64,000 nucleotides of DNA from the NCBI GenBank assembly GCA_951406725.2, contig OX597826.1, positions 44,144,001-44,208,000 of the forward strand, read 5' to 3'. A program made the translations under genes and the position numbers. Shown piece after piece: positions 27,020 through 62,120 of this stretch. Source of the DNA: Octopus vulgaris (taxonomy: Eukaryota). Under the pieces are notes generated by a model. It was not told where the DNA came from. It did not search any database and worked only from the letters and a program-made list of their open reading frames with translations. Position 1 is the stretch's first letter. Each line of letters starts with the position of its first letter.

Positions 27020-27162
27020 ATACATGTAACTCTCAATAAACTGGTTGAGTATCCTTTCGTTTGTCCAGTCACTCGTGTATATATATATTCGGTGTGTGGT
27101 GAGGCAAATCGTTGCTAAACCCTTAATTACTTAGTATTACTTATATATATATATATATATAT

Positions 27163-27546
27163 AATTCCAAAATTAGAAATTCCATTTACCAATGTAAAAT
27201 TTCTTCCGGTACCGATGTCTTCTTCTACATTGGGGCAACTACTTCTAAATTAGCCCACAGGATCTCCAATCATTATTCAACTTTCCGAGATAAGAGAAAA
27301 CAACAAAGCACAGGACTAAGTAAATTAGTTTGGCGTCTTAAGGACAGCAATACAACTTTAAAACTGGAATGGTCCATATTGTCTGTATCCTTTCCGTTTG
27401 ATAATGGCAGAAAATTTTGTGGCGTCTGTAATTCCGAACTTTTCCATATATTGTTCGCCAAAGTCCCTTTAATAAATACAATGGTCGAGAAATCCTATAG
27501 GTGCATGTACTGGCAGAAACACACCTTTCACTCATATAAATGTTGA
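27163..27546 (+). pseudogene. GIY-YIG endonuclease C-terminal domain of a Penelope-like retroelement (5'-truncated, no start codon, otherwise open)
   Basis: Manual translation: NSKIRNSIYQCKISSGTDVFFYIGATTSKLAHRISNHYSTFRDKRKQQSTGLSKLVWRLKDSNTTLKLEWSILSVSFPFDNGRKFCGVCNSELFHILFAKVPLINTMVEKSYRCMYWQKHTFHSYKC*. It has IY..YIG, R..NH, LSK..W.LK, C..C..E and N motifs. Confidence 0.9.
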
Positions 27547-28077
27547 TTAATATAGATAACCTACTTGAATTTTAATAATATAGTCCCATTTATATATCAC
27601 CCCCATAGTCAATTTTTATACCCATAAATGACTACTACCCAAGGTATGTTTTACCTTTGTCTCTCTACCTCACCCTCCTCTCTCTCTGTCCCTCTCTCTA
27701 TCGTAAGCACAATCAAACACACAGACACAAACCTGTCACTTCACCACTGTCTGTTTTTGGCATCTATCCAACCACACACACATACACACACATAGACATG
27801 AATGCAGTTATATACATACACACACATAGGCACTCAATCACAAAAGAAAACAACAACAAATCACCATTCATATGACCTGCACCCTGTCACCTTCCTATTC
27901 TTAGACCTCTCTCCTCCAACCTTGTTTGAACCCTTGAACCTTCTAGAATCTTCTAAATTCAACCATTTTTGACGTCACTGCTTATAACGGAATATTTAAA
28001 AGAAACACTCATTATCGCTATGGGCTCCGTGTGGGCAGTCATCTAAAAGTTTTTGTTCATCATGATGCTAACATAAG

Positions 28078-28176
28078 TTCCTTGTTTTTCCTGATGAGAA
28101 AGCGGCATAATGCACCGCTTATTCCTTCGAAATTAGGAATATGCAGCCACTGAAACATATGTCGAGAATAAAGGAA
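28078..28176 (+). ncRNA. Type I hammerhead ribozyme motif (minimal stem III, degenerate stem II base)
   Basis: ttccttgtttttc-CTGATGA(28091)-...-t-GAAAC-atat-GTC(28163)-gagaataaaggaa. Confidence 0.7.
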
Positions 28177-28209
28177 TTTTGTTAATTCGTCGTTCAACTC
28201 CATTCTTTC

Positions 28210-28277
<68 letters not shown>

Positions 28278-34799: not shown

Positions 34800-34892
<93 letters not shown>

Positions 34893-34895
34893 AAT

Positions 34896-35580
34896 AAAAA
34901 ATAAGGGTGAAGAAATTGGATATTAATTTTTTAATAACATCAATTTAACACCAAGAGGTTTAGAGCATAAAAACTGGGATACAGTAAAAATTAATACACA
35001 AATATAAGAGAGGGTCCACTATGTGGACGATCTTGCGCTAAAAGTAGATCTGCAATGGTCTCAACCACCAAGTAGTGGACCATTTCTTATATTTGTGTAT
35101 TAATTTTTACTGTATCCCAGTATTTATGCGCTAAACCACTTGGTGTTAAATTGATGTTATTAAATTAACATCCAATTTCTTCACCCTTATTTTTGATTTT
35201 AATTATACTGCAGTAAATTATTTATGCAGTATTTGTTTCCGTAATTTTGGCGCGCTATAACGAGGGCATTCGAATCATAACTGCGAATATAATAGACTGA
35301 ACCACACGTGTGTTTGGCTTTATGTTAAAATCTGGCGTGCGGTTCCATAACTTATATTCATGACGAATTCTACTGATGAGCTGTGGATCTATTATGTAAG
35401 TAACGTTGCATAATCCATTAACAGTGAAACAATTGTCTAGAATTAATCTACAATTTTGTTATTTTTCATTTGTCCTGCTCGTTTACGTTCATAGTTGTGC
35501 TAATTCTCCTTGGGAACAATTCTTGGCGGTTGAGACCATTGCGGATCTATTTTTAGCGCAAGAGCGTCCTCTCTTATATT

Positions 35581-35586
<6 letters not shown>
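34896..35586 (+). mobile_element. PLE-type pLTR insertion (inverted partial copy plus forward copy with HHR) between (TA)n tracts
   Basis: Arms 34896-35021 / 35073-35194; 35523-35586 is the reverse complement of about 34995-35072; HHR at 35366. Confidence 0.8.
35366..35444 (+). ncRNA. Type I hammerhead ribozyme, intact core, minimal palindromic stem III
   Basis: aattcta-CTGATGA-gctgt..ggat..ttatgtaa/ttgcataa..atcc..acagt-GAAAC-aatt-GTC^tagaatt. 7-bp stem I; predicted cleavage after 35437. Confidence 0.88.
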
Positions 35587-47060: not shown

Positions 47061-48845
<1,785 letters not shown>

Positions 48846-55645: not shown

Positions 55646-56193
55646 ACAATTAAGGATAAAATCTTAATAAGGAATCTTAACAAGAAATTATCAGGTAGTT
55701 AGCGTGAAAAACCTCATAAGAGAAAAATTCGAAAATAATTTTTTTCACTTGAAAATATTAATTTATATCGTATAGAGGGCATTATTACACATAAATGCCA
55801 CACGATAAGAGGGACATAAGTCATTACTACCAAAATTTAACTAATCATACCTAATGCAGCTCCCGAAGCAAGACATTTAAAAAACTGAATTTAGTTCTAT
55901 ATCACCTCTGATTTCGCAATTAACGTATCAAATACGTCTTTTGTTCATCAGTAGAACAGATTCTGAACACATCATAAATAAACAACCAACATACCTAGCG
56001 AAGCCAAACAGACATCTGCTCCCCTCGGCGAAGCACATGGAAATATTTATTCATCATATATTCGGTAAATGGCGGGCTTTTTCGAACTGCATGTTGGTAG
56101 GAAAAGTTTTCTAGGTATGATTAGTTAAATTTTGGTAGTAATAACTTATGTCCCTCTTAGCGTGTGGCATTTATGTGTAATAATGCCCTCTAT

Positions 56194-56639: not shown

Positions 56640-58239
56640 CAGTTGCAGCCAAAATGTTCAGAACGGCATTGTTTTCGTTAGAAAAGTAAGTGTAAGTTTT
56701 TATCAACGTTGTTTTATATTCTATAATTTTCACAGACAATAAATACAATATTATTTGTTATTGTCTGAGATTTTGGTGTAATTTGAGAGGATAATACAAA
56801 AGTTATGAATGATTTAGTGATTTACTGCAAAACCCATGGCGGCCAAAATGATCAGAACGGTTGCTTTTACTCCGTGTTTTAGTATATTTAACCGGCGAAC
56901 TCTAATGCTTTGAATTTGTTTACTTGACGGTTCGTTTACTAAACATTAGTAAAAATATCTACAGTATACTTTGTTAATATAATGCCACTTACTCCGTTAC
57001 CAATTCGTCAGCAGATTATTAAGCTTCGAAAGAAGGATAATTTTAGTATTGGGTCTATTGCAAACATTGTTAACAAGTCAAAAAGTGTTGTTCAAGGTAT
57101 TCTTAAGGTCTACGATAATTGTGGTTCGTGTGAAGCAATACAGTCTACAGGTAGGCTAAGAAAAACGACCAAGAGAGAAGATCGTGCTATGGTAAAGTTG
57201 GTTAAAAAGGACAGATTTAAAACTGCTGCTGCTGTTTCTCGGGAACTGAGCCTTGTACTGAAGAAAAATTTATCTCGAAAAACTGTGTCTCGTCGTTTAG
57301 TTGAACATGACCTACAAGCAAGAGCACCTGCAGTGAGGCCACTGATCAGCTCCAAGAATAAAAAGTGTCGTCTTACCTGTGCAACCGAACATGGCAAACT
57401 ATGCATTGCAGTGATGAATCTAAGTTTATGTTATTTGGCTCAGATGGGAAAAGGTACGTTCGTCGAAAAGTAGGTGAAAAATTGTTGCCTAAATGCCTTA
57501 AGACTAGTGTTAAATTCGGTGGAGGAAGTGTCATGGTTTGTGGGATGATATCTGGAGATGGCGTGAGCCCTTTGGTGCCATTACATGGAAAGGTAAATGC
57601 AGGAGTTTATAAACAACACTTGTAAAAGATCATGTCTTGCCTGTGCTGAGAAATTCAACTAAGCGACCACCCATATTCATGCAGGACAATGCCCCATGTC
57701 ACATGGCTAAGGTGGTCATGAACTTCCTCAAGGCTGAAAAGGTTATTGTTATGGATTGGCCTGCTCAAAGCCCAGATCTCAATCCTATTGAAAATGTGTG
57801 GAATATTCTGGGAGAACGTTTGAAAGCCAGAAATCCTAAAACAACCGAGCAATTATGGAATGCCCTTCAGGAAGAATGTATTAAAATCACCCAGCAAGAA
57901 ATTGAAAATTTAATTTCCTCATGCAGTCAAAGTGTGATTGAAGCTAAAGGGCTTCACACTAAATATTAAATAATTCCAGTATTCTCTGTCATTTTTGATT
58001 AATTTGTTATTTTTTCAACCGTTCTGATCATTTTGGCCGCCATGGGTTTTGCAGTAAATCACTAAATCATTCATAACTTTTGTATTATCCTCTCAAATCA
58101 CACCAAAATCTCAGACAATAACAAATAATATTGTATTTATTGTCCGTGAAAATTATAGAATATAAAACAACTTTGATAAAAACTTACACTTACTTTTCTA
58201 ACGAAAATAAGGCCGTTCTGAACATTTTTGTCGAAACTG
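56640..58239 (+). mobile_element. Tc1-family (DD34E) DNA transposon, IR/DR type, complete ends
   Basis: 224-bp TIRs (56640-56863, 58016-58239) each with two direct repeats resembling gccaaaatg(t/a)tcagaacgg; TA TSD at 56638-39 and 58240-41; 1600 bp. Confidence 0.97.
56982..57969 (+). pseudogene. Tc1 transposase, frameshifted
   Basis: HTH region with TGRLRKTT, then SDESKF, GGGSVMV, QDNAPCH and WPAQSPDLNPIENVW over three ORFs. Confidence 0.95.
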
Positions 58240-60559: not shown

Positions 60560-61195
<636 letters not shown>

Positions 61196-61199
61196 TTGC

Positions 61200-61545
61200 G
61201 GAACTGTTTCCGGCGGGGAACGCAATGTTTCAGGATGATAATGCACCAATTCACATAGCTAAAGTTGTTACTGAATGGCACGAGGATCATTTTGGTGAAG
61301 TTGAACATCTTATCTGACGACCATTGTCCCCAGATCTGAATATTATTGAACATTTATGGTGCATTTCAGAAAAATAATTAAGTAGTCGATATCCTTCACC
61401 ATATGACTACAAGAACTGGGGACTGTTTTAGCTGACGAATGGACAAAAATTCATTTGGAAACAATTCAAACTTTTTACGAGTCCTCTACCTCGTAGCATT
61501 CAAAAATGTGATTACTGCTAATATCAATTTCTACTCTTATTAAAT
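61200..61545 (+). mobile_element. Tc1-like transposase 3' fragment
   Basis: QDDNAPIH...PLSPDLNIIEHLW. Confidence 0.85.
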
Positions 61546-61747
61546 TTTATATTAAATAAATATGTTCTCTAACCGGTAAACTGACTGCTGCTACTTCTTA
61601 GCTGCAGGGTGGTTTTTCCGGTCTCAGCGCGCCAAAGTGAAGGCATTTGAAAAATACATTTAAATATAATCGGTTGAACTCCATGCATGCGAGACTCCGG
61701 TCAATCGTTTTTGCATCTAGTCCAGCAAATTGTATTTTATATAACAG

Positions 61748-61814
61748 ACCATGCTGACGAGATTACAGTTTATCCTTGCAGATAATAATAATCGAAACTG
61801 ATTCAGTACATGGT
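61748..61814 (+). ncRNA. Type I hammerhead ribozyme, canonical core and three paired stems
   Basis: accatg-CTGACGA-gatta..ttatc/gataa..taatc-GAAA-ctg-att-cag-TA^catggt. Predicted cleavage after GUA at 61808; the host segment ends at (TA)n at 61975. Confidence 0.92.
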
Positions 61815-62120
61815 TAATTATTTTTATTTCGTATATTTTCATTTGTCTTGTTTACTGCTTTGGTTTTGTGCTGAGTTTGTATTTGAGAACATACCCTTTG
61901 TGGAAAATAGCGATTTGACGTCTATATCTAGCATGTTGACTGTCCACTTTTCGTGTTCAGTCCTTTAAATTTTGTATATATATATATATATATATATATA
62001 TTGGTGAATTGAAGAAATGGAGCTGAACGCAGATTGAACAGAAATCGTTGTGATTTTTGCTACTAAGGTATCGGTTAAACTTTTGATTAATCTACTACAA
62101 GATTATTCATCTTTCTATTT

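Follow-up and report, generated by a model that had tools for sequence, protein, structure and literature searches.

A hammerhead motif of Octopus vulgaris is part of a non-coding, tandem-forming retrozyme family with paired insertion arms

A 67-nt sequence with the appearance of a complete hammerhead ribozyme lies within the window, by which we mean the whole 64-kb stretch of Octopus vulgaris DNA analysed here. An earlier note on this DNA had read it as a canonical, probably active monomer, and the locus raises the question of what the motif belongs to, whether it would act alone or in pairs, and how its carrier reaches new genomic sites. We find that the window hammerhead sits in a truncated copy of a repeat that codes for no protein and forms tandem arrays. 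This repeat family is an animal non-LTR retrozyme, an element of a known kind (Table 1). Our main reading, to which we assign a probability of roughly 0.8, is that enzymes of Penelope-like elements (PLEs) likely copy this repeat from RNA into (TA)n, and that the palindrome of stem III is predicted to allow an active dimer within a tandem transcript.

Hammerhead motif and repeat family

Every motif element claimed by the earlier note was found at its proposed position: by inspection, the stem I strands are ACCATG (61748-61753) and CATGGT (61809-61814), the core CTGACGA occupies 61754-61760, the base of stem II pairs GATTA (61761-61765) with TAATC (61789-61793), GAA follows at 61794-61796, and stem III pairs ACTG (61797-61800) with CAGT (61804-61807) around the loop ATT. 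Position 61808 corresponds to A17, and the cut is therefore expected directly after it; the TA tract, claimed to lie about 160 nt downstream, begins at 61975, 166 nt past this predicted cut. The motif has the CUGANGA core, GAAA, UH and three helices of a type I hammerhead and is open at stem I. A structural descriptor matched it with stems of 7, 5 and 4 pairs, and at thresholds of 6/5/4 this was the sole match in the window, with 0/300 block-wise dinucleotide shuffles matching. A loose core pattern that ignores pairing gave 44 overlapping matches at 9 core sites in the window and is uninformative. Elsewhere in the window, a minus-strand core match (CTGATGA ... GAAA; 55880-55951) with a possible two-tier stem II failed the pairing descriptor. 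At the level of sequence, the type I hammerhead motif at 61748-61814 is thus confirmed as real, its self-cleavage being a prediction. Searching Rfam gave no match at the gathering score, and the 32 matches at E<=10 included no hammerhead family; the long stem II is the likely reason, and a library match does not define a ribozyme. The fold of the 67-nt hammerhead alone is not unusually stable (z -1.28).

Two details modify the canonical picture. The inner hairpin of stem II, which has a UUGC loop in the family, is present as the earlier note described, with the correction that position 61780 of the window copy forms a C-A mismatch in place of the C-G pair of most copies. Furthermore, the sixth stem I pair, A61748-U61814, is private to the window copy because the family reads CATGGGT and CATGGTT was found in 2 of 84 extracted family hammerhead regions; the canonical look of the window copy stems from this private pair.

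Table 1. Coordinates of features in the window
Feature	Position	Strand	Basis or remark
Type I hammerhead ribozyme, GUA site, predicted cut 61808/61809	61748..61814	+	Sequence, descriptor, covariation
Long stem II, two-tier: 5-bp base, internal loop, inner hairpin	61761..61793	+	Compensatory changes
Palindromic stem III, ACTGA-T-TCAGT; would form a 4-bp hairpin with triloop in the monomer or a 5+5-bp duplex in the dimer	61797..61807	+	
Stem I extension past an internal loop: ATAA/TTAT here, ATGA/TCAT in other subfamilies	61740..61820	+	2/4 pairs change on both sides
5' strand of the long helix enclosing the hammerhead	61623..61658	+	Predicted; one pair changes from G-C to A-U in 3/20 copies
3' strand of the long enclosing helix	61831..61875	+	Entry coincides with the stop zone of most short arms, +43 to +66
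5'-truncated single arm of a non-coding retrozyme unit, 457 bp	61518..61974	+	About 60 bp of the unit missing
Read-through copy of the region of alternative 3' end B	61519..61552	+	In the unit, end B follows end A by 93 nt
Hairpin GACTG/CAGTC, then 3' end A	61938..61974	+	Inferred start of reverse transcription
(TA)n target tract	61975..62001	+	Most family arms end in (TA)n
Broken Tc1-like transposon end flanking the arm	61191..61521	+	9/9 fetched relatives align; labelled Tc1-like by us from a translated motif
Broken Tc1-like transposase	56943-57969	+	DDE_3 match, E 1.7e-13
Fragment with YRPITYLPLVWK ... EQKG motif	48011-48463	+	Taken by us to resemble a non-LTR reverse transcriptase
Second retrozyme-like insertion, with inverted arm	34890-35585		Hammerhead core 35373 (+), palindromic stem III ACAATTGT
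3' end of a coding Penelope-like element, endonuclease-like frame 27127-27546	27127-28213		Ends in (TA)n
Two tandem copies of a 233-bp repeat, 90% identity	16181-16615		Probably a SINE, we assume

The paired strands covary among family copies. In 21 chosen variants, 96% of 501 cells were paired in register, as opposed to 31-47% in slid controls, and 9/24 pairs change on both sides, counts that are inflated by the relatedness of the copies and are not independent evidence. These changes span stem II, its inner hairpin, stems I and III and the distal extension of stem I, and within stem II they are compensatory at 3/4 counted base pairs and at 2/6 pairs of the inner hairpin. RNAalifold missed stems I and II because MAFFT had misplaced an extra nucleotide after A9, which is found in several subfamilies.

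The segment carrying the motif is non-coding, as the earlier note had stated (no open frame >=110 aa over it), with a length of 457 bp rather than the claimed 430 bp or so; the unit has a GC content of 0.33 and no LTR. The best 30 genome copies found by BLAST begin at 61518/61519 in window terms, and at other loci the sequence continues for about 60 bases and then starts again, with a unit length of 502-529 bp (23 measured units). The family thus consists of head-to-tail repeats with one hammerhead per unit, of which the window copy has a single unit; one locus carries a tandem array of 4.2 units together with 2.5 units in inverted orientation, the 505-bp units being 98-99% identical. At least 69 matches were obtained with the best 40 of 2075 candidates scored, a 24-mer near the 3' end of the segment has 2303 exact matches in the genome (reversed control, 0), and the pattern of an intact hammerhead has at least 706 exact matches in the 2.8-Gb genome. 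The genome search proposed by the earlier note therefore returns thousands of matches and arrays of up to 4.2 units, and the segment is multi-copy and covarying among its homologues. A variant common to 7/7 listed units of one array is found in none of the remaining 93 listed matches. Assembled contigs from three sequencing runs presumed to be RNA and one of uncertain type cover parts of the family, with no piece across the window locus, and are neutral on expression. Promoter-like words were noticed by eye (TCATTT near +33, TGACGTC near +103 and TATATAAA near end A), and their start sites conflict.

The window copy itself has decayed slightly. Six of its substitutions (61661, 61814, 61855, 61879, 61895 and 61953) are absent from all three close relatives compared, and its arm folds at z -5.69, with 0/100 shuffles as stable. 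Relatives of the flanking transposon end align at 87-90% up to 61503-61521 and then diverge (9/9 fetched); a 33-aa piece of this end had no Pfam match. The arm joins the transposon end through a CTAA overlap and the last ~75 bp of the transposon are absent; a deletion removing a second arm is a possible history of the locus. As a single A arm with one ribozyme, the window copy is therefore likely a dead end, at most slowly cutting a read-through transcript, and a single unit alone cannot make a circle.

Palindromic stem III as monomer or dimer

The RNA of stem III reads as the palindrome ACUGA-U-UCAGU, a feature overlooked in the first reading. It was parsed in 82 of the 84 extracted regions, giving 16 variants of 10-12 nt, 13 of which are self-complementary to within one central letter, the other three being confined to 1-2 insertions each; self-complementarity is thus kept through changes of length and letter. 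All 21 of 21 aligned copies have the central A-U pair, one that a hairpin of 11 nt is unable to form, and sister families carry 8-nt palindromes (10/12 in one, 8/8 parsed in another).

Predicted energies for the window copy favour pairing between molecules: the stem III hairpin is computed at -0.5 kcal/mol against -11.3 for the self-duplex, and the strand-swapped active dimer at -32.7 against -24.4 for two minimum free energy (MFE) monomers, about 8 kcal/mol more stable, values from a nearest-neighbour, standard-state calculation without Mg2+ or tertiary contacts that overstates the dimer at low concentration. In the predicted monomer MFE the core is buried, CUGA pairing with UCAG of stem III, and the active monomer makes up about 0.04 of the predicted ensemble, lying 1.0 kcal/mol above the MFE. 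The swapped active dimer is the cofold MFE, or within 0.2 of it, in 11/11 variants; for a 12-nt palindrome the predicted active monomer fraction rises to 0.23-0.33, longer palindromes stabilising the monomer too. The ribozyme is accordingly predicted to fold best in pairs, a conserved design that would keep the dimer route known for PLE and amphibian hammerheads (PMC4209133, PMC6765202), including the dimeric PLE hammerheads of Lunse et al. as reviewed in PMC6765202. In a Xenopus study, 8 of 9 dimers assayed failed to cleave (10.64898/2026.07.22.740005).

The proposal that the motif stands apart from dimeric PLE ribozymes as a probably active monomer is therefore not favoured, given the palindrome, the two stem III energies and the core-burying MFE. 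Monomer cleavage is possible all the same, because invertebrate retrozyme hammerheads with a shorter helix III cleave from single repeats, those of coral and mussel at about 0.8 and 0.1 per min (PMC7229834); it might then be ordinary rather than special. A stronger version of this alternative holds that the ribozyme cleaves well as a monomer, that a 4-bp stem III suffices when the inner hairpin of stem II makes loop contacts with the internal loop of stem I, and that the palindrome is an inherited leftover. It draws on the coral and mussel rates, on the small energy gap between the active fold and the MFE, on the covarying stem I extension and on the presence of 4-bp stems, which can form, in the larger young subfamilies. 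We lean against it while granting it a real chance: 13 of 16 variants are palindromic to their centre, every aligned copy has a central pair that the 11-nt hairpin cannot use, sister families carry 8-nt palindromes, and the core of the window copy can pair with UCAG. The series of 10-, 11- and 12-nt palindromes provides direct test material for monomer versus dimer action.

Insertion scars and the RNA template

Insertions were sampled as the loci behind the first 100 of the 2303 listed 24-mer matches, all on a single contig (C1), which amount to 54 insertions. Their arms stop, mostly into (TA)n, at one of two 3' ends: A, at window position 61974, or B, which lies 93 nt farther along the unit. 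Each end is preceded by a predicted hairpin and a similar CCTT-AAT-TA stretch. In 41 of the 54 insertions two opposed arms could be classed, and all 41 combine A with B, none being AA or BB; of the others, 12 have one classified arm and one has none under automatic classing. Within an insertion the two arms show on average 0.96 differences over ~94 letters, as compared with 4.2 between insertions (24 insertions), and to judge from these sequences both arms of an insertion derive from the same variant. The junctions between arms contain short fillers copied from nearby sequence or are located at palindromes. In four insertions (L092, L110, L114 and L123) the head-to-head junction coincides with or adjoins the stem III palindrome or the GTAC of the cut site, which palindrome annealing or cleaved RNA ends could explain. 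Partial tandems, an inverted 5'-truncated copy, a tail at one end and a microsatellite target together make up PLE-type scars, and the link to PLEs drawn by the earlier note is to this extent borne out.

For the 5' ends of the arms, stop statistics were computed on 99 of 104 mapped segments, with 5 fragments dropped and 5 ends outside the automatic windows assigned by hand; one of these 5 (L128), cut by the edge of the fetched stretch, was taken as A. The cut site is crossed by 36/99 arms, and 10 cross two. Of 71 arms reaching +66 (in nt past the predicted cut), 32 stop between +66 and +43, followed by 1/39 between +42 and +19, corresponding to stop rates of 0.188 and 0.011 per 10 nt; because the sample was selected by an exact 24-mer (+104 to +127), rates above +66 are biased, the contrast below being unaffected. 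Both 5' ends fall within 5 nt of each other in 20/45 two-armed insertions, whereas the shuffled mean was 3.6 and 0/10000 shuffles reached 20. The circular unit folds at z -6.6 (40 shuffles), with a predicted helix between +21 to +62 and +325 to +362 that encloses the hammerhead and is predicted in the window copy and in the sister family as well, where the block of its 5' strand has a conserved counterpart (35250-35302). At family level, the pairing of A with B and the helix-linked stop zone deserve to be followed up.

A mechanism can be proposed in which these observed scars are joined by putative transcription, cleavage, circle formation and enzyme action. A tandem array would be transcribed; neighbouring hammerheads would pair via stem III and excise a unit-length RNA, and the ends of this RNA would be joined to give a structured circle. 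A Penelope-like reverse transcriptase (RT)-endonuclease would then cut both strands of (TA)n, and reverse transcription would start at the hairpin-flanked sites A and B, 93 nt apart, each serving one DNA end. Both cDNAs would often stall on entering the long helix 43-66 nt past the cut, or else continue round one or more units, and their ends would finally be joined head to head. In its most specific form, which we hold only tentatively and at somewhat less than even confidence, both cut DNA ends are primed by a Penelope dimer, each at its own hairpin-flanked site on a single retrozyme RNA and always as A+B, the helix acts as a brake that sets insertion length, and the palindromic hammerhead cuts tandem transcripts only and spares the circle.

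Several observations suggest that cleavage may not be required. No accumulation of arm 5' ends is seen at the cut, where 4 of the 38 arms at risk end between -5 and +18, and the scars are therefore without direct sign of cleavage; core-mutant hammerheads fill whole insertions, CTGACAA being present in both arms of L013; and for a lizard PLE, ribozyme activity was described as unnecessary for insertion in vitro (PMC11167929). The main rival for the stop zone is that most insertions were templated by a linear RNA with its 5' end ~35-65 nt past the cut, either a transcription start within the unit or a trimmed end, so that both arms run off the same end and arrays arise through tandem read-through with no circle. 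The agreement of paired 5' ends and the sharp fall in stop rate would both follow from such a template, and an internal promoter is described for the terminal repeat of Penelope (PMC2377424). We nevertheless regard a linear template as rather unlikely: the stop zone coincides with the entry of the predicted helix, where both RTs would stall at the same position even on a template that does not end there, and many arms pass the zone.

Penelope-like relatives and known systems

Enzymes suited to the proposed role are encoded in the genome: GIY-YIG matches occur in open frames of up to 781 aa, and one frame has both RT and GIY-YIG Pfam matches. A PLE family of high copy number (L037, L042 and L039), whose 781-aa frames have a CxxC motif preceding GIY-YIG, is, we presume, Neptune-like; by eye, its 3' end is a region rich in TGACGTC and ATTGG words, and at about 2690-2740 of L037 there is a possible hammerhead variant with a U3-A8 core (TTGATAA ... 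GAAACATGTTA). The coding element in the window at 27127-28213 carries a hammerhead at 28091 with the palindrome ACATATGT, and in its relative L154 an open frame of 623 aa combines an RT-like YRDD motif with an extended Asn-rich linker; this RT-endonuclease family thus bears at its 3' end a hammerhead of the same build as the ribozyme studied here. The sister family represented at 34890-35585 has at least 85 matches (best 40 of 2623 candidates scored) and two blocks in common with the studied family, besides the enclosing helix.

Identity with an autonomous PLE was rejected, as units follow units with no RT-GIY-YIG frame between them, and a search by blastn for an autonomous partner with sequence similarity found 0 in 30 GIY-YIG loci (of 148 matches) and 0 in 12 loci of the 27170-28212 family. 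The segment might still be merely the terminal repeat of a 5'-truncated autonomous element, with which it would share its scars, and truncated PLEs are described as leaving single hammerheads genome-wide (PMC4209133). This is very improbable: upstream of the hammerhead, copies run into the previous unit, for up to 4.2 units, inspection of 84 mapped loci (the 30 best copies and the 54 C1 insertions) found 0 that enter other element sequence before a full unit repeats, and the 42 RT/endonuclease loci show no similarity to it. A chance match in AT-rich DNA, with which the Rfam result and the ordinary 67-nt fold would agree, is rejected as practically negligible on the strength of the covariation and copy number, together with the absence of matches in shuffled sequence.

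The single window ribozyme, a lone and slightly decayed copy of a known kind of element, matters little. The family, in turn, is a usable natural experiment in which thousands of insertions yield exact priming and stop sites for a small RNA template, and retrozyme write-back, PLE tails and inverted ends are therefore testable in vitro with a 505-nt RNA.

We found no description of cephalopod retrozymes or of A+B arm pairing in the literature, where supplements may list such families, and the main text of an Octopus vulgaris repeat annotation contains 0 occurrences of 'ribozyme' or 'hammerhead' (PMC13282606). The closest counterparts are the metazoan non-LTR retrozymes described by Cervera and de la Pena 2020 (PMC7229834), which are alike in being non-coding, low-GC tandem repeats with one type I hammerhead per unit, a highly self-paired predicted circle and co-occurring autonomous PLEs. 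The octopus family differs from them in its unit of 502-529 bp as against ~170-400 nt, in its long two-tier stem II and 10-12-nt palindromic stem III, and in that its circle is a prediction. Non-LTR retrozymes have been presented as non-autonomous PLE derivatives by Li, Clavereau and Pollet (10.64898/2026.07.22.740005); theirs likewise occur as monomer, dimer and multimer copies, the octopus unit lies within their range of 51-972 bp, and the window copy fits their 'monomer' class. Their link to PLEs is drawn from terminal-repeat homology and co-occurrence, whereas here it comes from insertion scars, no homologous terminal repeat having been found.

With the minimal hammerheads of PLEs (PMC4209133, PMC6765202) the octopus ribozyme shares type I topology, a large helix II, a palindromic helix III region, dimer capability and, in several subfamilies, the extra nucleotide after A9. 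The family hammerhead is not itself a minimal, dimer-only motif, because its helix III can form 3-4 bp as a monomer (4 bp in the window copy), in contrast to the absent or 1-2-bp helix III of minimal motifs. As to insertion, PLE copies are described as inverted and 5' truncated with a tail at one end (10.1101/2021.04.23.441226), and Poseidon of Anolis carolinensis has two internal RT start sites, cuts and extends both strands, and favours AT-rich targets (PMC11167929); the octopus scars are alike in their two putative internal RT start sites, apparent use of both DNA strands, one-end tail, AT-rich target and inverted 5'-truncated copy. The octopus family departs from Poseidon in having no open frame, in a tail of 93 nt instead of 30-40, and in its strict pairing of A with B, where the start sites of Poseidon in vitro were reported not to differ between strands (PMC11167929).
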